Assembly: GCA_964501035.1 (NCBI GenBank)
Contig: CAZCRK010000002.1
Span: 55,893-75,892 of the forward strand
Direction: 5' to 3'
Length of the DNA: 20,000 nucleotides
The position numbers were made by a program, and so were the translations under genes. Of the stretch, positions 9,020-20,000 are shown one piece after another (within the stretch, counting starts at the first letter, position 1; the number at the start of each line of letters is the position of its first letter). The notes under the pieces are model-generated. The model saw nothing but the letters and a program-made list of their open reading frames with translations. It made no database searches and was not told the origin of the DNA.

Positions 9020-11843
9020 TTTGAACATAGCCAGTCTTTTAGAATTATTACATCTTCGTGAGTTTGTTTCATTTGATTTAGAAACTACTGGATTAGATGC
9101 TAAACATAATAAAATAACAGAAATTTCTGCATATAAGTTTAAAGATGGGAAACCATCTGAAAATTTCACTTCACTAGTTAATCCAAAAATTAGTATCCCC
9201 AAAGATATCGTAGAGCTTACTGGAATTTCTGATGAGATGGTGAAGAATGCACCAACCATTGAAGAAGTATTACCACAGTTAACAGAGTTTATAGATGATT
9301 TACCCATTGTTGGACATAATGTTCATTTTGATATAGGTTTTTTAAAATTTAATCTTGAAAAGTCAAAATTACCATATACTCAAAGGTCGCTTTATGATAC
9401 GGTTACTCTGGCAAGAGCATTTATGTATTTTAATAATGAGTTTAACTTATCTGCTGTTAGTCAATATTTTGGTTTTAATACTGAAAATGCTCACAGAGCT
9501 AGTGCAGACACACTCAATACAGGAAATATTTTTGTTAAATTAGTCCAAGAGTGTGCTTCATATCCACTGACAATCATTCAAAAAATATATAATGTGATTT
9601 CACATACAAATATCCCAAATATTGAGTTGTTTAAACATATTGTTGAAGCTAGTGCCGAAAGACATACTGTAAGTGGTTTAACACAATCTGTTCCTGAAAT
9701 TAATTTTGAAAATACATCACATATTTATACTCATACTTCAAATTCAGAAACTGATTTACCATCAACACCGGAAACCTATTTTGAAGAGGGTGGAGTTTTA
9801 CAACAAAATTGGACGGGTTACGAACCTAGACCTTCACAAGTTAGTTTAACAAAAGATAGTTTTGATTCATTTATGGGTGATGGAATATTAATTGCAGAAG
9901 CAGGTACAGGATTAGGCAAATCATTGGCTTATATTTCAGCAGGGCTTATTGCAAGTAAAAAATTAGATATTCCGTTAGTAATTTCAACATATACTAAAAA
10001 TTTACAAGATCAATTATTTCATCATGATATTCCTGAGTTTGCCCAAACTATCGATCAAGATGTTTCTGCTGTTATTGTAAAGGGAAGAAACAATTATTTA
10101 TGCAAAACTAGATTGGAATGGGTAATTAAAAATAGTAGTAAACTTTTGAGTGAAAAAGATTGTGAAGACATATTGCCTGTTTTGATTTGGTCTGAATTTA
10201 CCAAATCTGGTGAAATTAGTGAGTGTAAAGGATTTAGAAAGCAATTTGCGTTTCGAGTTTGGAAATTGATACGAAGCGAGACTGGATTTTGTACATCAAA
10301 AAGGTGCAACAGACACAATGGATGTTTCTTAAAAAATGTTAGAGAAGATATGAATCATGCTGATATAATTATCGTGAATCATTTTCTGCTAATGAGTGAC
10401 GCAAATCAGTCACAATCTAATCTACCTGAACGTTTCATTTACGTCATTGATGAGGGGCACAATTTAGTATTGGCAACTCGGGATCAGTTAACAGACCAAA
10501 TTGGTGAAGATTCTTTTAACGAAAGTTTCACATTTTTCAAACGTAAACATAAGATATTTTCAGATACATTATCTGAGATAGTTGATAAAATACCAAATAT
10601 ACTCCCAATTCTAGATGAATTAGAGAGAAATTCAAAAGATTTGAAATCAATATTAAATGATTTTTTTCAATCGTATTTATCATCTAAAAAATCTGAATTT
10701 GAACAATCTGATTTTTATGAAACAAATGTCCGATATACGAACGCCCTAGATGAATTTATTGAGGTTTCTCCGATTCCAGATGATATTATTAACAAGTTAA
10801 AGAAATATTATAACCTAGCTATGGGTTATTCCCAAGAATTGCAAAAATTTAAGGAAGAACTGAAGGGCACTTATTTAAGCGAAGTTTCTATTCAGATAGG
10901 TCGTTTAGAACAGTTTATCTCAGTGTTTAGTAAATGTTTTACAGATTCAGTTGATACCATTATGTGGTCATCATTTATTCGTTCATCATTTAAACGAAAA
11001 GTATTCTTAAACAATGCGCCTTTACAAGTTAATTCATTTATCGCAGATAATATTTTTTCTCGAGAAAATGGAGGAATTATTTGTTCTGCAACTTTAACAG
11101 TGGAAGATTCTTTTTCATATATTAAAGAAACAATAGGTCTTGATAAAGTGAATCATTTTAAAAATGTTGACGAAAAATTATATCATTCACCTTTTCATTA
11201 TGAGGACCAAGTTTCATTATTTGCATTAAAATCTGATTTGAATGCAAATTCATCAGAATTTCTTCGTTTAATTGCCAATCAAATAGATGAAATCACCCAG
11301 AAATATAAAAAACGAATGTTAGTTTTATGTACTTCCTATAAACAGACAAAAGTGTTAAAAGATGTGTTGCATCCAAAAATGTTTCAGTTAGAAAGAAGAC
11401 TTTTAGTTCAAACCCCGGGTGCCAACCGGAGAGCTTTAGTTCAAAACTATTTGGATAACCCTCAATCAATATTGATTGGAACATCCAGTTTTTGGGAGGG
11501 GGTAGACTTTCAAGGGGATAAAGTTGAAATATTAATGATAGTAAAGATTCCATTTGGAAACCCAAGTGATCCGCTAGTTTCTGCTCAGATAGATTTATAC
11601 AATAGCGAGGGTAGAAATGCTTTTATGAAATATCAAATTCCCGAAGCTGCAGTGAAATTTAAACAGGGATTTGGTAGATTAATTCGAAGCTTAGAAGATT
11701 CTGGTATATGTATTCTTACAGACCCAAGATTATTAAAAAGTAGATACGGTCATGTTATTTTAGATTCATTACCTGTAGATGTAGTTCCATATTCTTCTAC
11801 GCCGACAATATTTCTAGAATCTCAAAGTAAACTTGGCTATTAG
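9006..11843 (+). CDS. dinG: DEDDh 3'-5' exonuclease (DnaQ-like)-DinG family helicase fusion
   Basis: Exonuclease motifs FDLETTG, GHNVHFD, HRASADT. Helicase motifs AGTGLGKS, KGRNNYLC, IDEGH, FWEGVD, QGFGRLIRS. The real start may be TTG at 9021. Confidence 0.92.
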   Translation: MLEYNLNIASLLELLHLREFVSFDLETTGLDAKHNKITEISAYKFKDGKPSENFTSLVNPKISIPKDIVELTGISDEMVKNAPTIEEVLPQLTEFIDDLPIVGHNVHFDIGFLKFNLEKSKLPYTQRSLYDTVTLARAFMYFNNEFNLSAVSQYFGFNTENAHRASADTLNTGNIFVKLVQECASYPLTIIQKIYNVISHTNIPNIELFKHIVEASAERHTVSGLTQSVPEINFENTSHIYTHTSNSETDLPSTPETYFEEGGVLQQNWTGYEPRPSQVSLTKDSFDSFMGDGILIAEAGTGLGKSLAYISAGLIASKKLDIPLVISTYTKNLQDQLFHHDIPEFAQTIDQDVSAVIVKGRNNYLCKTRLEWVIKNSSKLLSEKDCEDILPVLIWSEFTKSGEISECKGFRKQFAFRVWKLIRSETGFCTSKRCNRHNGCFLKNVREDMNHADIIIVNHFLLMSDANQSQSNLPERFIYVIDEGHNLVLATRDQLTDQIGEDSFNESFTFFKRKHKIFSDTLSEIVDKIPNILPILDELERNSKDLKSILNDFFQSYLSSKKSEFEQSDFYETNVRYTNALDEFIEVSPIPDDIINKLKKYYNLAMGYSQELQKFKEELKGTYLSEVSIQIGRLEQFISVFSKCFTDSVDTIMWSSFIRSSFKRKVFLNNAPLQVNSFIADNIFSRENGGIICSATLTVEDSFSYIKETIGLDKVNHFKNVDEKLYHSPFHYEDQVSLFALKSDLNANSSEFLRLIANQIDEITQKYKKRMLVLCTSYKQTKVLKDVLHPKMFQLERRLLVQTPGANRRALVQNYLDNPQSILIGTSSFWEGVDFQGDKVEILMIVKIPFGNPSDPLVSAQIDLYNSEGRNAFMKYQIPEAAVKFKQGFGRLIRSLEDSGICILTDPRLLKSRYGHVILDSLPVDVVPYSSTPTIFLESQSKLGY

Positions 11844-12344: not shown

Positions 12345-13748
12345 ATGAACATAATTGAAAAATTAAAAATATCAGGAGAATATGTTTATCCTATTATAGA
12401 AGGTGGTAAAGGTATTGGTGTAAGTGATGGAGTTACTGCAGGTTCATTTGCACAAGCAGGTGCAGTTGGAACAATTTCTGGTGTGTTTCCAAACATGCTT
12501 AATGAAGTTGGGAAAGTCATATTCCCTCAGTTTATTGGAAAAACTCGACTTGATAGATTTAATGAACTGGTTGAACAATGTATTACTGGATGTTTAGATC
12601 AAATTGATATTGCAAATAAAATCTCTGATGGGAATGGCCGAATACATTTAAATATTTTATGGGGTATGGCTGGTGCAGAACGAATTTTAAATGATGTGTT
12701 AGAATCTGCAAAGGACAAAATTCATGGAATTACATGTGGTGCTGGTATGCCATACAAACTTGCGAATGTTGCGGAAAAGTATAAAGTGTACTATTATCCA
12801 ATTGTATCTTCAGCTCGTTCTTTTAGAGCATTATGGCTTAGGTCATATAAGAAATTTCCAGATTTTCTAGGAGGGGTTGTGTATGAAGACCCATGGAGAG
12901 CTGGTGGCCACACAGGTATCACTCAAAAAGAGAACCCACATGTTTTTGAAGATTCTTTTCCACGAGTAAAAGAGTTAAGAAATTTTATGAATAAAGTTGG
13001 ATTAAATAAGACTCCGATTGTTATGGCTGGTGGAGTGTGGTATTTAAATAAATTTAAAGATTGGATAGATAATGTTGATATTGGTCCAATTGCATTTCAG
13101 TTTGGAACTAGACCTATGTTAACAAAAGAAAGTCCAATTTCTACAGCATTGAAAGAAAAACTGTTAAAATTAAAGAGGGAAGATGTAGAACTAAATAAGT
13201 TTAGTCCAACAGGTTTCTTTTCTTCGGCATTAAATAATTCATTTTTAAAGGAACTTAAAGACAGAGCATCTCGGCAGATTGCCTTTAGATTAAATAAGGA
13301 TGAAACGTTTGATACTGAATATCCAGAAACCAAGTCAGCAAAATCATCATTTATTGAAAGTTCGAACTTAGATAAGGTTAAACAGTGGTTTAATAATGGA
13401 TTTACTAAATTTGTAAAAACACCAGATTCAACATTTTTGTTTCTTAAACCTGAAAAAGCAAAACAAATACGAGACGATCAAAAGAACTGCAAGGGGTGTC
13501 TTGCAATGTGTGGGTTTAGTAGTTGGCTTGAACGATCTGAAAATAATTATACTACAGGTGAAATTGCTGACCCACGAAGTTATTGTATCCAAAAAACTTT
13601 ACAAAATGTAATTTTAGATAATGATATTGAAAACCAGCTCATGTTTGCAGGGTCCAATGCCTTTGAATTTTCAAATGACCCACTTTTTAATAAAGCTGAA
13701 TTCCCATCGATTAAAGAGTTGATTCAACAAATTTTATTAGGGAAGTAG
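12345..13748 (+). CDS. nitronate monooxygenase / FabK-FabX-like FMN-dependent oxidoreductase
   Basis: PIIEGGKGIGVS, GAGMP, AGGH, MAGG and FQFGT motifs of the FMN TIM barrel. C-terminal CKGCLAMC...YCI cysteine cluster. Confidence 0.85.
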   Translation: MNIIEKLKISGEYVYPIIEGGKGIGVSDGVTAGSFAQAGAVGTISGVFPNMLNEVGKVIFPQFIGKTRLDRFNELVEQCITGCLDQIDIANKISDGNGRIHLNILWGMAGAERILNDVLESAKDKIHGITCGAGMPYKLANVAEKYKVYYYPIVSSARSFRALWLRSYKKFPDFLGGVVYEDPWRAGGHTGITQKENPHVFEDSFPRVKELRNFMNKVGLNKTPIVMAGGVWYLNKFKDWIDNVDIGPIAFQFGTRPMLTKESPISTALKEKLLKLKREDVELNKFSPTGFFSSALNNSFLKELKDRASRQIAFRLNKDETFDTEYPETKSAKSSFIESSNLDKVKQWFNNGFTKFVKTPDSTFLFLKPEKAKQIRDDQKNCKGCLAMCGFSSWLERSENNYTTGEIADPRSYCIQKTLQNVILDNDIENQLMFAGSNAFEFSNDPLFNKAEFPSIKELIQQILLGK

Positions 13749-14454: not shown

Positions 14455-14602
14455 CTAACGTACACTAATTAAATATCAAATATTTTAGTTTTATTCCAAA
14501 CTATTGGCGTAAAATTAAATCCGACCAAAATAGTCCTTTTTATTTAATATAAATAAAATGTAACTTTGTTTGTTCATTACTTTATAATAAATGGAGGGGA
14601 AA

Positions 14603-15343
14603 ATGTATAAATACTCAATCAAATTAATATTAATATCAAGTACTCTTTTTTGTATGCTAATAGCAAATTCTAATAACCCACCAAATGCTAGAACAGGTGC
14701 TCCTGGAGAATCAACTTGTATAGACTGTCATAGCAGTTATGGACTAAATTCAGGGTCAGGTTCACTTTCATTATTAAATATTCCTGCTGAATATGAAGTC
14801 GGACAATCATATCTAATCAATGTTGAGTTAACTCATTCAGGACAAGAAAAATGGGGTTTTGAAATCTGTGTGAAAGATGAAGATCAAAATCAAATTGGAG
14901 AGTTAAACGTCATTGATAACTCTACAACAATGTCGGGTACCCAAAATGGCATTACGTACATAAAGCAACGAAGTGCAGGTACATTTGATGGACAAATGCA
15001 TAATGCAACATGGACAGTAGAATGGATAGCACCATCAGAAAGTATAGATAATATTACATTTTACGCATCTGGAAATGCTTCTAATAGTGCTCAAGGCAAT
15101 AGTGGTGACTATATTTACACTACCTTAGAAACTACACACGCTGTTCAAATGGAATGCCTTGGAGACGGAGATGCAAATCTAGATGGGGTAGTAAATGTTA
15201 TTGATATTGTAAATACTGTAAACTACATCATTGGAAGTGTTGAGTTTCAGGATGAAAATTTTTGCCATGCTGACGTTAATGTTGATGGTTTAATTAATGT
15301 TATTGATATTGTAAATATGGTCAATATAATTATCGGTAATTAG
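14603..15343 (+). CDS. secreted Reeler-like (choice-of-anchor V) domain protein with CxxCH and C-terminal dockerin-type repeats
   Basis: Signal peptide, TGAPGESTCIDCH, WTVEWIAP and GDYIYT. Duplicated GDANLDGVVNVIDIV / ADVNVDGLINVIDIV repeats. ATG 14603 follows a GGAGG ribosome-binding site (the ORF track starts at 14591). Confidence 0.75.
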   Translation: MYKYSIKLILISSTLFCMLIANSNNPPNARTGAPGESTCIDCHSSYGLNSGSGSLSLLNIPAEYEVGQSYLINVELTHSGQEKWGFEICVKDEDQNQIGELNVIDNSTTMSGTQNGITYIKQRSAGTFDGQMHNATWTVEWIAPSESIDNITFYASGNASNSAQGNSGDYIYTTLETTHAVQMECLGDGDANLDGVVNVIDIVNTVNYIIGSVEFQDENFCHADVNVDGLINVIDIVNMVNIIIGN

Positions 15344-15708
15344 TGTTTCTTAGATTTATTTTATGGTTGTTAGGATTACTACTTACTTCATGTTCATACG
15401 TTTTTCAACCCAAAGATTTGAATTGTGAGGATGATACAGGAGAGTATTGTGCTGTATATACTATTTTAGAATCGAAATGTTTAAATTGTCATTCAAGTAA
15501 TAACCCAGAAGGTTCTCTTGATTTGTCTACCTATGAGGAAATTATAAGCAGTAATGTGATTAATTTTGATGATTTAGAAAGCAGTATTCTTTTAACTAGA
15601 ATAGCTGATGAATCAAATCCAATGCCACCTCCTGAGTATGATACACAGTTAAATGAAAACGAAATTCAGGTAATAACCAATTGGGTTTTGAATGGAGCAC
15701 AGCCATAA
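15343..15708 (+). CDS. monoheme c-type cytochrome lipoprotein (planctomycete cytochrome c-like)
   Basis: Lipobox LLTSC, CLNCH heme motif, GSLDLS, MPP (probable axial Met) and terminal WVLNGA. Confidence 0.8.
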   Translation: MFLRFILWLLGLLLTSCSYVFQPKDLNCEDDTGEYCAVYTILESKCLNCHSSNNPEGSLDLSTYEEIISSNVINFDDLESSILLTRIADESNPMPPPEYDTQLNENEIQVITNWVLNGAQP

Positions 15709-16292
15709 AGTTATTATTCATTATTTTAGTATTTCCAATTATTCTAATTGCAAATGAGTTTACAATTGTAGATAGCTTACCGTCGAATTTACCTGTTATT
15801 AAGAAAATTCTTTGGGGTGAAAAAGGACTGATTAGACAAACTCCATTTGCTCCAAAAAGTAGAATAGAAGAATATAAATTGCGACGTAAGATGTTACAAA
15901 CACATCAAAAGTTGGGTACAATTACATTAGGGTTAATGGCTATGCAAGCGTATTATGGACATCAATTGATTGATGGAAATTATGATAATAGACATATACA
16001 TAAAACTTTAAGCTATGCGTTAACTGGAACATATTTTACGACTGCTTCATTTTCCATTTTCGCACCACCGGCAAGAAAATATTCTCAAAATATATCATCA
16101 ATAAAATTGCACAAATGGTTATCAATTATTCATTTTACAGGTATGATTGTTCAACCATGGTTAGGGTATCAGTCTGCTAACACATCAAATGGGTTTCATG
16201 CAAAACAATATAAAGACTGGCATGTACAAGCAGGAAACATCACTTTTGTCAGTTTTGCTTTAGCATTTTTAACAACATTACTTCCGTACTAA
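15681..16292 (+). CDS. His-rich multi-pass membrane protein (possible b-type heme binder)
   Basis: Several hydrophobic helices, each preceded by or containing His (THQKLG, IHKTLS, LHKWLSIIH, WHVQAG). Start codon uncertain. Confidence 0.55.
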   Translation: MGFEWSTAIKLLFIILVFPIILIANEFTIVDSLPSNLPVIKKILWGEKGLIRQTPFAPKSRIEEYKLRRKMLQTHQKLGTITLGLMAMQAYYGHQLIDGNYDNRHIHKTLSYALTGTYFTTASFSIFAPPARKYSQNISSIKLHKWLSIIHFTGMIVQPWLGYQSANTSNGFHAKQYKDWHVQAGNITFVSFALAFLTTLLPY

Positions 16293-16817
16293 ATGATGAA
16301 AATTATTTTACTATTTGTTATAATTTCCTTTTCAATTGCACAAATTGAATTAGTCTCTTCTACTATAACATACCATGGAAGTCATCCTTTGCATGATTGG
16401 AGTGGAACTAGCATTTCTGCGCAAATCAAATTTGACTGTAACGACTCAAAAGTTTGTTCGGTAGTTATGAATATTCCTGTTGACTCATTTAATAGTAATA
16501 ATGAAAATAGAGATTCAAATATGTATGATGTGCTCGAAGGGTATTACTATCCTCAGATTACCTATATGTTTAAGGATTTAAATTTAATTTCAATTCAAGA
16601 TTACTATAAAAATAATGGGGTACTTACTTTGCATGGTGTCTCTAATGACCATAATCTAAATGTGCATTGCACCAAAAATAATTCTGATATTTTTTGTGAT
16701 TCAGATTTCGACATACGTTTGACAGATTTTAACATTGAAAGACCTTCTCTATTGTTTATGAAAATTGAAGATTTAGTTCAAATAAATTGTTCGTTTCATT
16801 TCAATATAAATCCATAA
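16293..16817 (+). CDS. YceI-like periplasmic lipid/polyisoprenoid-binding protein
   Basis: Signal peptide, HPLHDWSG, FNSNNENRD, YPQI, GVLTLHGV and DFNIERP. Confidence 0.85.
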   Translation: MMKIILLFVIISFSIAQIELVSSTITYHGSHPLHDWSGTSISAQIKFDCNDSKVCSVVMNIPVDSFNSNNENRDSNMYDVLEGYYYPQITYMFKDLNLISIQDYYKNNGVLTLHGVSNDHNLNVHCTKNNSDIFCDSDFDIRLTDFNIERPSLLFMKIEDLVQINCSFHFNINP

Positions 16818-17311: not shown

Positions 17312-17402
17312 TGGCGGAGAGAGGGAGATTTGAACTCCCGGTAGGCTTTTGACCTACACACGCTTTCCAAGCGTGCACCTTAAACCACTCGGACACCTCT
17401 CC
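17312..17402 (-). tRNA. tRNA-Ser(GGA)
   Basis: Reverse complement GGAGAGGTGTCCGAGTGGTTTAAGGTG-CACGC-TTGGAAA-GCGTG, long variable arm GTAGGTCAAAAGCCTAC, then GGGAGTTCAAATCTCCC-TCTCTCCGCCA with encoded CCA. Confidence 0.98.
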
Positions 17403-17645: not shown

Positions 17646-19385
17646 ATGAAACACACAATCAAACATATCTCAACTTATCTTATTTTTATAATTACAGGAT
17701 TATTTGTTTTTACATCTTGTGATGACCCAGTAGAACCCGATACAACTGCACCATTAGTTGTCATCACATCCCCAGTTGAAGATGCAACATTGTCAAGTGC
17801 AACGACTATTCGGGTAGATGCTACAGATGATACAGGTGTAGAAAAAGTAGAATTTTTAATTGATGGGCAAACGGTGGCGACTGATACTGAAGAACCGTGG
17901 GAACACCTATGGCAAGTGAGTTATTACGCTGATGGTGAAACTCATTCTATTTTAGCCAAAGCCTCTGACGAAGCAGAGAATACAGGGCAAAGTGATTTAG
18001 TGCATGTCTTTGTATCAGAAAATGCACAGGAAACGCCAACACTACAAATACCCTTGAATTACACTGTTGAAAGAAACACTAATATAATTGACTTTATTTG
18101 GTCAAGTATTGCGGGTGCAGAGGAGTACATTGTAATAGTTTCCTCCAGTTATAATTTCACAGACACGGAGTATAGTATAACAACCTCAGACACAACTGTT
18201 ACTACTGATGCTTTAGTAGAAGGAAATCATTATTGGAAGGTTCGTGCAAAGAATAGTGTTGGTAACTATGGTGAGTGGTCAAGTTATTATACATTTGAAA
18301 TAACAGGTCCTGAAGCACCTACATTAATAACACCTGAGTATGGAGAACAGATTGCAGATGCAGAAAACGCTGATTTGGTTTGGTCAACATCAGAGTTTGC
18401 TGAAACTTATGATGTAATAGTTTCCTCCAGTTATAATTTCACAGACACGGAGTATAGTATAACAACCTCAGACACAACTGTTACTACTGATGCTTTAGTA
18501 GAAGGAAATCATTATTGGAAGGTTCGTGCAAAGAACAGTGTTGGTAATTATGGTGAATGGTCAAGTTATTATAGTTTTAGAATCGGTGAATCAGCATTTA
18601 CTGGTCAGATGGTATCCCTTTCCGGTGGCACTTTTGAGATGGGCGATATTTGGGGAGCAGGATATAGTAATGAACAACCGACTCATACCGTTACCTTGAG
18701 CAGTTTTGAGATGAGTGCTACAGAAATCACCAATCAGCAGTATGCAGACTATTTAACAGAAGCATTAGCAGATGGCAGTATATCAGCCACAAGTGGCAGT
18801 GTAACTGGTACTTGGGAAGGCAATACTTATGAATTTTTAGATTTAGATGATAGTGATTGTCAAATAACCTATTCAAACGGTCAATTTACTGTAGATGCAG
18901 GTAAAGAGAATTATCCAGTCATTGAAGTAAGTTGGTATGGATCAACAGGTTTTGCAGAGTATTATGGATGCAGACTACCTACCGAAGCAGAATGGGAATA
19001 TGCATCAAGAGGTATATCAGCAGGAGAAGACCATAAATGGTCAGGCACAAGTACAGAGAGCGAACTTACAGATTATGCGTGGTACTATGAAAATTGGGAT
19101 GGAAACTATCACGGAAGAGAAGTAGGTACAAAACTTCCGAATGGCAATGGATTATACGATATGAGTGGTAATGTATGGGAATGGGTATCCGATTGGTATG
19201 ATGATAGTTACTATTCTAATAGCCCCCAGAACGACCCACAAGGACCTTCAAGCGGTTCTTTTCGTGTTATACGCGGTGGCCGTTATTATAATGATTCCAA
19301 CTATTTGCGTTGTTCAAATCGTAACGGCAACGATCCGAGCTACACGGGCTACGGCATCGGTTTCCGTATTTCCAGGACAAATTNN
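17646..19385 (+). CDS. DGR target lipoprotein: Ig-like domain + 2 FN3-like repeats + FGE-sulfatase (CLec-fold) domain with C-terminal VR (about 579 aa)
   Basis: AGGAG ribosome-binding site at 17632 and lipobox FTSC. Ig-like DTTAPLVVITSP; FGE motifs FEMG, YPVIEVSW, RLPTEAEWEYA, GLYDMSGNVWEW, RVIRGG, GFR. The stop T(AG) falls in the N gap, inferred from copy 2. The ORF-track extension to 19445 is an artefact. Confidence 0.92.
18131..18573 (+). repeat. intragenic direct repeat, 161 bp x2 (18131-18291 and 18413-18573)
   Basis: Offset 282 nt (94 codons). Only 3 mismatches, all synonymous (AAT/AAC, AAC/AAT, GAG/GAA). Confidence 0.95.
19237..19383 (+). repeat. DGR variable repeat, copy 1
   Basis: Encodes QGPSSGSFRVIRGGRYYNDSNYLRCSNRNGNDPSYTGYGIGFRISRTN. 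Differs from copy 2 almost only at codon positions 1-2 of NNY codons. Confidence 0.9.
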
Positions 19386-19393
19386 NNNNNNNN
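19384..19393. other. assembly/scaffold gap (10 N)
   Basis: Run of ten N between the two VR copies. Confidence 0.99.
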
Positions 19394-19545
19394 CACAAGG
19401 ACCTTCAAGCGGTTCGTTTCGTGTTTTACGCGGTGGCGATTATGATGATGTTTCCGGCAGTTTGCGTTGTTCAAGTCGTAGCAGCGTCGGGCTTCCGAGC
19501 AGCGCGTTCAGCAGCATCGGTTTCCGTATTTCCAGGACAAATTAG
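19394..19545 (+). repeat. DGR variable repeat, copy 2 (ends in TAG)
   Basis: Encodes QGPSSGSFRVLRGGDYDDVSGSLRCSSRSSVGLPSSAFSSIGFRISRTN*. 26 substitutions plus a 3-nt insertion relative to copy 1. Confidence 0.9.
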
Positions 19546-19571
19546 TTACACTATGCACTTTAATTCTTTTA

Positions 19572-19620
19572 CCAGCCTGCTCCACGCTGTTTCGTGGCTG
19601 GCAGGCGCTTTTTTCTTTTG
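19572..19620 (+). other. GC-rich hairpin downstream of the VR, followed by a T tract (DGR target-recognition hairpin and/or terminator)
   Basis: GCCTGC (19575-19580) pairs with GCAGGC (19601-19606), enclosing CCACG-CTGTTT-CGTGG. A T-rich tail follows. Confidence 0.65.
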
Positions 19621-19645
19621 GTTCTTTTCTTTCAAAGAAAAGAAC
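19621..19645. repeat. perfect inverted repeat
   Basis: GTTCTTTTCTTT-C-AAAGAAAAGAAC, with 12-bp arms. Confidence 0.85.
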
Positions 19646-19656
19646 AGAATGTTAAT

Positions 19657-20000
19657 ATGATTGAGAAAGAAATAGAAATATTACCGAAAGTTTATGATTT
19701 AATTTTGTGGTATTCACCTAAAATAAGCCAATATCCAAAAAAGTATAAATACACAATTGGTGAGAGAATTACGAACACGCAGTTGGCGATATTAGAGCGA
19801 ATCATTGAAGCAAAATACACAAGTGGTAGTAAAAAGAAACATTTTCTTCGTCAAGCAAATCTAAACCTTGAAAAACTTAGGTTTTTAATAAGATTAAGTA
19901 AAGATTTGCAGTGTATATCCATTAAAGAGTATGAATTTGTATCTAAAAACATCAATGAGATTGGTCAAATGGTAGGTGGCTGGGAGAAATGGACTTTAGT
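19657..20000 (+). CDS. avd: DGR accessory variability determinant Avd (truncated by the window edge; absent from the ORF track)
   Basis: Manual translation: MIEKEIEILPKVYDLILWYSPKISQYPKKYKYTIGERITNTQLAILERIIEAKYTSGSKKKHFLRQANLNLEKLRFLIRLSKDLQCISIKEYEFVSKNINEIGQMVGGWEKWTL... It shows the bAvd-like four-helix-bundle pattern (YDL..W, PK..Y.IG.RI, LEKLRFLIRL, EIG.M.GGW). Confidence 0.92.
   Translation, partial: MIEKEIEILPKVYDLILWYSPKISQYPKKYKYTIGERITNTQLAILERIIEAKYTSGSKKKHFLRQANLNLEKLRFLIRLSKDLQCISIKEYEFVSKNINEIGQMVGGWEKWTL

Follow-up and report, generated by a model that had tools for sequence, protein, structure and literature searches.

At the end of a 20,000-nt stretch of DNA (the window; NCBI GenBank assembly GCA_964501035.1, contig CAZCRK010000002.1, positions 55,893 to 75,892 of the forward strand) lies a gene for a predicted lipoprotein whose last codons are present in two versions, followed by two hairpins and a gene of the Avd family. 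An earlier note on the window had proposed that these are parts of a diversity-generating retroelement (DGR), in which a reverse transcriptase (RT) and Avd copy a template repeat (TR), mutated at its adenines, into the variable region (VR) of a target gene. Coordinates below are window positions on the forward strand unless a contig label is given. The genome under study (G000) is an assembly of 1.87 Mb in 167 contigs, the smallest of 1510 nt, and is 95.7% complete. Contig C2 carries the window at its end, and C24 and C117 are further contigs. G002, G025, and G069 are related genomes, L021 to L026 are metagenomic loci with avd, and P0001 to P0007 are the best homologues of the target protein.

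The target gene, its two ends, and avd

The cassette as it stands on C2 comprises the following features.

17646 to 19383, plus strand: putative DGR target gene, an open reading frame (ORF) of 579 codons whose stop is lost in a run of N; assigned by Pfam and solved relatives
18131 to 18583, plus strand: two near-identical stalk modules (direct repeat), from a repeat search
19251 to 19374, plus strand: VRa, putative variable region allele a, 124 nt, aligned to the TR of G000 itself and to the TRs of relatives
19375 to 19383, plus strand: 3' end of VRa resembling an initiation of mutagenic homing (IMH) site, GGAC in the VR and ATAC in the TR
19384 to 19393, no strand: run of ten N, the join between two assembled pieces
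19394 to 19545, plus strand: second gene end, with VRb, an IMH-like end, and a TAG stop at 19543 to 19545
19408 to 19534, plus strand: VRb, putative variable region allele b, 127 nt, one codon more than VRa
19575 to 19606, plus strand: G+C-rich hairpin followed by a T run, from strand folding; not conserved in G025 (by eye)
19621 to 19645, plus strand: perfect 12-bp pyrimidine/purine palindrome between VR and avd, from a repeat search and folding
19657 to 20000, plus strand: avd, 114 codons present, cut by the end of C2; matched by the bAvd and DivGenRetAVD models

The target protein agrees with the earlier description of a lipoprotein with a formylglycine-generating enzyme (FGE)-type C-terminal domain on an Ig/FN3 stalk. 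Pfam places Big_7 at aa 36 to 102 (E 2e-16), weak Ig-like matches at aa 154 to 314, and, with the profile that the earlier note had proposed for a check, FGE-sulfatase (PF03781) at aa 321 to 575 (E 1.5e-54), the VR being the last ~45 residues of that domain. The N terminus has K2, K6, a hydrophobic run, and VFTSC with Cys25, which, reading by eye with the PROSITE PS51257 rule, we take to be a lipoprotein signal and lipobox. The site of Cys25 reads FNSC or FNAC in homologues, and the product is predicted to be a lipoprotein. The weak Ig-like matches correspond to a direct repeat of 171 nt, 96% identical, whose copies are 282 nt apart (18131 to 18301 and 18413 to 18583). Thus, the stalk consists of one Big_7 domain and two nearly identical modules.

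A search for homologues of the target returned 753 proteins at E ≤ 1e-5. We aligned the seven best, which are 71 to 84% identical to the target, and found long invariant stretches, while the last ~45 residues vary at fixed positions only, following the pattern RV-x-RGG-xxxxx-(A/S)-xx-LRCS-x-R-xxxx-P-xx-(T/S)-xxx-(I/F)-GFR. The variable positions are the Asn, Thr, and Ile codons of the TR described below. The 94-aa stalk module is present once in P0006 and P0007, twice in the target and in P0002 to P0005, and three times in P0001, so that stalk length varies among close homologues, as does the tip. A further set of proteins (P0008 to P0011, P0020, P0024, and others) has a Big_7 and Ig-like stalk that is 76 to 79% identical and carries a Fib_succ_major tip (PF09603). 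One stalk type thus bears different tips, and Fib_succ_major itself appears as a DGR target tip in the list given by Wu et al. 2018 (PMC5758913).

Treponema denticola TvpA (2y3c) was the best solved relative of the last 141 aa of the target (E 1.1e-28), in an alignment that spans the VR. FGE enzymes were the top PDB matches for the full domain (E 2.3e-41) and ranked after TvpA for the last 141 aa. In alignments to 6muj and 2q17, the FGE loop cysteine pair after GGS, which we take to be catalytic, falls in gaps of the target. The domain is therefore read as a binding module and not as an enzyme. What Wu et al. 2018 say of TvpA agrees with this reading.

We found the last ~49 codons of the target twice, at 19237 to 19383 and at 19394 to 19542. 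The two gene ends differ by 25 substitutions and one 3-nt indel, which at the protein level amounts to 17 of 49 residues and one inserted residue. The last 20 nt of VRa (19355 to 19374) are invariant and common to the TR. The piece before the N run stops 2 nt short of the stop codon, and the piece after it begins 14 nt before the VR. The N run is a scaffold join, since G000 has four runs of ten N and 24 of a hundred N. Because the duplicated stretch amounts to the VR and a few bases around the gap, and because intact relatives have a single VR before avd, the two gene ends are most likely two VR alleles of one locus in the sampled population and not two genomic copies. Thus, the two divergent versions of the last ~50 codons that the earlier note had seen are both there, and its picture of them changes in that ten N lie between them.

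Contigs from four public runs (X1 to X4) also touch this region. The organism has a depth of only ~4 to 5x in these runs, X1/X2 and X3/X4 look like duplicate filings of one dataset, and X1 may be the source sample of G000, so that it is not independent evidence. One exact X1 contig covers 18747 to 19157, and over the VR there are only short contigs with 10 to 25 differences (18600 to 19383 examined). One of these, 151 nt long, spans exactly 19237 to 19383 and has 25 differences and three inserted letters, the same counts as VRb, which is compatible with an alternative path in the assembly graph.

The ORF at 19657, which the earlier note had called Avd-like, passed both DGR-type Avd models and failed the general one. 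It scored 108.1 bits with NCBIfam NF033474 DivGenRetAVD (cut-off 80) and 73.3 bits with Pfam bAvd PF22296 (cut-off 40), as against 32.6 bits with 23S_rRNA_IVP PF05635, which is below the cut-off of 33.8 (E 1e-7). It was the only bAvd match in G000. The Avd proteins of relatives have 120 to 124 aa, and so ~10 C-terminal codons are missing from the avd of G000. Position 20000, the end of the window, is the end of contig C2.

The hairpins that the earlier note had reported after the gene end were recovered, and the region folds with a z-score of -4.82; none of 200 shuffles folded as well. The hairpin at 19575 to 19606 is probably the terminator of the target gene; a simple terminator scan did not flag it. 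The palindrome at 19621 to 19645 is A+T-rich, lies ~75 nt past the target stop, and is preceded by a T-rich run in all seven loci compared (G000, G025, L021, L022, L023, L025, and L026). Across these loci its arm lengths covary, and its foot pair is G-C in some and C-G in others, a compensatory change. A hairpin described by Guo et al. in 2011 reportedly aids target recognition in Bordetella phage BPP-1. The palindrome resembles it in position, and by analogy it may have the same role.

The template repeat and its adenines

The earlier note had suggested looking for a TR beyond position 20000. Contig C2 ends at that position, and the 3' half of the TR was found on C24. A search with the duplicated gene end gave only one other match in G000, the last 77 nt of C24 on the minus strand. 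Two features lie there.

C24:20602 to 20678, minus strand: 3' half of the TR, from the search with the duplicated gene end
C24:20472 to 20608, minus strand: RT-14 RNA (RF02921), from Rfam, 48.5 bits with a gathering score of 48.1

Read on its minus strand, the end of C24 is AAC-rich and encodes R-C-S-N-R-N-N-N-N-P-N-N-T-N-N-N-I-G-F-R-I-S. We compared it with the two gene ends in a gap-aware alignment, in which 69 TR positions (25 A and 44 other bases) could be compared with both. In VRa, 10 of the 25 adenines were changed and none of the 44 other bases (Fisher p 9.6e-6); in VRb the changes were at 14 of 25 adenines and again at none of 44 other bases (Fisher p 2.9e-8). Taken over both alleles, 18 of 25 TR adenines were changed in at least one. 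All 25 substitutions between VRa and VRb fall at a TR adenine, 14 of them judged against the TR of G000 and 11 against the 5' halves of the TRs of L021 and L022, the two nearest metagenomic relatives, both of which have A at these positions. VRa and VRb are both mutated copies of the TR, and neither is identical to it. The repeat that the earlier note had asked for is therefore present at the end of C24, differing from both VR versions only at adenines.

VR and TR have a 20-nt block in common past the last variable adenine; next to it the VR has GGAC and the TR ATAC. We found the same contrast in G025. This would be the expected arrangement of an IMH and its TR counterpart, IMH*.

G000 has a second FGE-sulfatase protein of 328 aa with a signal-like N terminus, encoded at C117:1684-2670 (L046 1195-2181). 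The stop codon of its gene is 23 nt from the contig end, a suspicious place for a break. We considered this gene as a second target of the DGR and rejected it: its C-terminal DNA has no match to the TR.

Intact relatives, RT-14, and the weighing of explanations

An Avd match was present in 7 of the 42 genomes of the family set, G000 included, and a scan of metagenomes for avd gave six loci (L021 to L026). Relatives with 73 to 90% identical Avd have target, avd, RT, TR, and RT-14 in one piece. In G025 (Avd 74% identical), an FGE-type target with a VR, avd, an RT of 374 aa (RVT_1 E 1.2e-29), a TR immediately past the stop of the RT gene, and RT-14 lie together on the same strand of a single contig. 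In L025 a contig of 2834 nt contains the whole cassette. L022 (Avd 90%) has avd, RT, TR, and RT-14, and the variable part of the 3' half of its TR is identical to that of G000; L024 has avd, RT, and then the TR. In L021 (Avd 90%), the repeat that comes after avd and RT has a 5' half like a TR and a 3' half like a VR. L023 ends shortly after avd, and L026 was viewed upstream of avd only.

The RTs that lie between avd and the TR in G025, L021, L022, L024, and L025 have 363 to 381 aa, those of L021, L022, and L024 having 364 to 381 aa. Those of L021, L022, and G025 have YMDD and IGNLTSQ, the latter fitting IGxxxSQ, which we take to be a mark of DGR RTs. When three RTs of relatives were compared with NCBIfam, none reached the cut-off of a group II intron, retron, Drt, or Abi model. 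A scan of genome contigs with the L022 RT gave five loci, in Cloacimonadota (43 to 46% identity), Spirochaetota, Muribaculaceae, and Nomurabacteria.

The RT-14 match in G000 is full length (model positions 1 to 144 of 144); its start overlaps the final bases of the TR, and a hairpin forms its end. RT-14 scored 51.2 bits in G025 and 62.8 in L025, and below threshold in L022 (45.4) and G069 (43.4). The junction of TR and RT-14 was present in all five matches inspected (G000, G025, L025, L022, and G069). L024 has an RT-14-like element, recognized by eye and not scored by the model, and when it is aligned with the five matches 37 pairs are predicted, of which 17 show compensatory change in one or more sequences. 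The 5' strand of the outer helix is the ACTA of the TR-specific end, and a hairpin of ~10 bp is capped by four bases. Further features are a conserved unpaired AGTCCAGAT...TTCCTGCT stretch and a terminal hairpin. A wider search at E ≤ 0.01 gave no RT-14 match in eight of the nine sources of one search or in any of six further sources. Among 151 genomes of the phylum there were two matches, with filters so strict that they missed G000 itself.

Several observations on the relatives stand apart. On the minus strand of G025:C4 (L017), the VR (13117 to 13240) is 7 nt shorter than the TR (11399 to 11529), and the last ~35 codons of the target are out of frame, the reading continuing into avd, with Pfam covering positions 4 to 229 of 255 of FGE-sulfatase. 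This target is either decayed or misassembled in a hypervariable stretch. Directly after the G025 DGR, at L017 10490 to 11238, is an ORF of 181 aa for an IS200-like Y1 transposase (PF01797, 1.2e-7) with direct repeats of 99 nt (90% identity) on either side; a short segment related to this stretch, recognized by eye, also lies between VR and avd there. The repeat after the L021 RT (1690 to 1830) has intact adenines in its 5' half; its VR-like 3' half has one extra codon, a VR-type end, a stop codon, and a downstream flank of its own. Either the assembler fused the TR with a VR here, or that strain may have a second target at a distant site. In G069:C31 (L055), at 240 to 450, only what appear to be the last ~15 RT codons and a small unrelated ORF precede TR and RT-14, and the RT there may be truncated.

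From these results we conclude with high confidence that G000 carries a chromosomal DGR of the avd-RT-TR type (architecture B2), that the assembly has split it over two contig ends, and that the two versions of the gene end are VR alleles. As what would speak against a DGR, the earlier note had named a genome with no TR or RT and an ORF matching only 23S rRNA intervening sequence proteins; we found a TR at the end of C24 and a DGR-type Avd match. C2 ends inside avd and C24 begins inside the TR. The order we propose is the target with its VR (17646 to 19545), the palindrome, avd up to the end of C2, a gap of ~1.2 kb, and then, on C24, the 3' half of the TR, RT-14, and housekeeping genes. By comparison with relatives, from which an RT in G000 is inferred, the unassembled ~1.2 kb between the ends of C2 and C24 should hold the RT and the TR's 5' half. 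No G000 contig is as short as this, the smallest having 1510 nt; thus, the RT piece probably either failed to assemble or formed a contig of its own that a length filter removed.

A number of points weigh against this reading. Foremost, a search of G000 with RVT_1 (PF00078) gave no matches. No RT protein of a relative served as a query, and a very divergent or fragmentary RT could have been missed. Both contigs end where five relatives carry an RT, and the RT that the earlier note had asked for is seen in relatives only. The adjacency of C2 and C24 comes from sequence logic; no spanning read or contig was seen, and there is no synteny support. The 714-aa neighbor of the TR has homologues in 38 of the 42 family genomes, and in G002, of the same genus, its homologue starts a contig while the gene after the MORN homologue is unrelated, so that synteny speaks neither for nor against the join. 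In G000 the 5' half of the TR is not assembled, and the corresponding half of the VR was compared with the TRs of relatives only, which gave non-A differences at 3 of 36 (L021) and 4 of 34 (L022) positions. These differences are identical in VRa and VRb, with 8 to 14 A positions differing in the same half, and would be expected if the 5' half of the TR differs slightly between lineages. The public-run contigs are too shallow to reveal adenine-specific heterogeneity, and RT-14 in G000 is only 0.4 bits above its gathering score. Finally, VRb has a 3-nt insertion relative to the TR, which goes beyond adenine mutagenesis alone, and by eye even a template with an additional AAC would yield VRb only with one C-to-G change. 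The extra codon sits in an (AAC)n tract, and the VR-like repeat of L021 is likewise one codon longer. It could have come from slippage of the RT or from coassembled strains with TRs of different length.

The missing RT could also mean that the DGR has decayed, with the RT lost and the VR alleles left as fossils of past activity. The empty RVT_1 search in a genome that is 95.7% complete fits this explanation, as does the VR of G025, whose lost 7 nt and out-of-frame target indicate that decay occurs in the family. However, a deletion would leave avd joined to the TR on one contig, whereas in G000 both contigs stop exactly at the borders of the place that the RT has in relatives, and contigs below ~1.5 kb are absent from the assembly altogether. 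Moreover, neither avd nor the target ORF is damaged before it reaches its break, and one assembly contains two VR alleles. We therefore regard decay as very improbable. Scarcely less improbable is an element with two separate targets, in which VRa ends the 579-aa gene and VRb ends a second target beside avd, misjoined or with the rest omitted. The ten N conceal an unknown length, VRb is one codon longer than both VRa and the TR, the L021 repeat with its different downstream flank hints at extra targets in the clade, and multitarget DGRs are known (Wu et al. 2018, PMC5758913). Yet G000 has only two FGE-sulfatase genes, the C117 one being without a TR match, and L025 and G025 have one target directly before avd. 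The overlap of VR and few bases only is the signature of an assembly bubble, and the 151-nt X1 contig with the counts of VRb is like an alternative path through it.

We also considered that no DGR is present at all and that the locus is a gene for an FGE-family enzyme with a duplicated end, next to a generic four-helix-bundle protein of the 23S rRNA intervening sequence type. FGE enzymes are indeed the top PDB matches of the full domain (E 2.3e-41), and PF05635 matches the ORF at 19657 with an E-value of 1e-7. However, when judged against the AAC-rich repeat on C24, the differences between the gene ends are adenine specific; both Avd models clear their cut-offs by a wide margin, and PF05635 does not reach its own; the FGE loop cysteines are in alignment gaps of the target; and RT-14 follows the TR directly. 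The adenine test and the Avd model scores refute this explanation, to which we give almost no probability.

If a DGR split by the assembly is the correct explanation, its action would, by analogy with the Bordetella phage, proceed as follows. The transcript of avd, RT, TR, and RT-14 would fold, and the stem-loops just 3' of the TR would bind RT and Avd and position the 3' end of the TR for cis-primed reverse transcription. Adenines would be miscopied during cDNA synthesis, and the cDNA would replace the VR, guided by the common 20-nt block at its 3' end and the VR-specific GGAC end. The outcome would be ~18 codons rewritten at the exposed face of a tip with a C-type-lectin fold, held off the cell surface by the Ig-like stalk.

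Comparison with known elements, and genomic surroundings

The architecture, which the earlier note had thought possibly undescribed, turned out to be a published one. Wu et al. 2018 (PMC5758913) named the order avd-RT-TR architecture B2, and their category b, with 13 domain compositions and 71 of 372 targets the largest target class, comprises FGE-sulfatase targets that carry various extra domains at the N terminus. The element shares both the core order and the type of target, and it may already stand in the catalogues of Wu et al. 2018 or Roux et al. 2021. VRs are systematically located in C-type-lectin folds according to Roux et al. 2021 (PMC8144416), who also report that DGRs are enriched in the Fibrobacteres-Chlorobi-Bacteroidetes (FCB) group, Marinimicrobia included. 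The element is a typical DGR, and it leaves the understanding of DGRs unchanged.

Among individual systems, BPP-1 (mtd, avd, TR, brt) shares Avd, the adenine-specific transfer from TR to VR, a VR-specific 3' end, a palindrome or hairpin past the VR, and a structured RNA that adjoins the TR on its 3' side. It differs in its order (avd-TR-RT, whereas it is avd-RT-TR here), in its RNA (RT-10, as opposed to RT-14), and in its target, a phage tail fiber in place of a cellular lipoprotein; unlike the hairpin of BPP-1, the palindrome here is A+T-rich and ~75 nt after the stop. The Treponema denticola DGR resembles the present one in that TvpA is the best solved relative of the target C terminus and the element is chromosomal and not phage-borne. 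The target described here differs from TvpA by its N-terminal stalk of Big_7 and two Ig/FN3-like modules, and the Treponema element belongs to a clade of architecture C with an HRDC accessory gene according to Wu et al. 2018, where the present cassette has avd. Legionella pneumophila LdtA is likewise a surface lipoprotein with an exposed, diversified C terminus, in a cassette with Avd (Wu et al. 2018), but its VR is of the DUF1566/Fib_succ_major type and the retroelement is part of an integrative conjugative element, whereas here the VR is of the FGE type and the flanks are housekeeping genes.

RT-14 brings a further point. Weinberg et al. 2017 (PMC5737381) characterized RT-1 to RT-19 by no more than their nearness to RT genes, noted the position of RT-10 between TR and RT in BPP-1, and supposed that further RT motifs belong to other DGRs. 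Here RT-14 is placed directly at the 3' end of the TR. We found no link of RT-14 itself to DGRs in the literature searched, where the sole match was a paper on three-dimensional motifs in Rfam. According to Handa et al. (bioRxiv 10.1101/2023.10.23.563531), RNA on both sides of the TR wraps RT and Avd and cis-primes cDNA synthesis, and a stem-loop lies just past the TR in 207 of the 278 DGRs with Avd; RT-14 fits this description. RT-14 may be the RT- and Avd-binding, cis-priming RNA of avd-RT-TR (B2) DGRs. Since its outer helix would draw on TR-specific (IMH*-side) bases, it may be that only the TR transcript, and never the VR transcript, folds and is copied. The one-codon insertions in the (AAC)n tract of VRb and of the L021 repeat could be due to slippage of the RT, which, if true, would mean that a system credited with substitutions alone also generates indels. 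That both extensions hold, RT-14 as the cis-priming RNA of B2 elements and length variation by slippage, seems to us rather doubtful.

The locus also illustrates how DGRs appear in draft metagenome-assembled genomes: VR and TR break the assembly, the RT falls under the contig-length cut-off, and two population alleles of the VR come to stand side by side across a scaffold gap. Counts of DGRs based on RT genes would miss this element.

Both flanks of the element consist of housekeeping genes, and thus it is chromosomal, as the earlier note had held; no phage or plasmid genes were seen in either flank. Upstream in the window are alaS and genes for a glycine-cleavage P-protein, a purF-like protein, UbiA, a geranylgeranyl reductase, a DinG-type helicase-exonuclease, cspA, and small secreted proteins. 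The left border of the cassette is formed by a tRNA gene.

17312 to 17402, minus strand: tRNA-Ser(GGA), from ARAGORN and with 49.4 bits from the Rfam tRNA model, 244 nt upstream of the target

Past the TR, C24 carries the gene for the 714-aa protein, which belongs to no known family, and then dnaX, ybaB, recR, pgsA, pgpA, cinA, ligT, recA, and polA. G002 lacks the cassette after its MORN gene and has a different DGR elsewhere. Thus, the element is an accessory cassette with a patchy distribution. The DGR of G002 lies on the minus strand of G002:C19 (L019 7912 to 9290) and has a 43% identical Avd and an RT of 358 aa; it is cut by the contig end inside avd, is followed by a Por_Secre_tail/Big_7 protein, and gave no RT-14 match at E ≤ 0.01.

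As for the host, two of the stalk-sharing proteins (79% identical over the stalk) bear the NCBI label Candidatus Marinimicrobia. This lends indirect support to the earlier guess of a Marinimicrobia-like organism, for which no other taxon pointer was obtained. One well-documented DGR is thereby added to a marine, probably Marinimicrobia-like, small-genome lineage.

Just upstream of the cassette, window positions 14591 to 16817 hold a run of genes for small exported proteins: a 250-aa protein with CxxCH and a dockerin, a PSCyt1 cytochrome-c-like lipoprotein, a membrane protein of no family, and a YceI-like protein. This run could be a cluster for extracellular electron transfer or heme handling.

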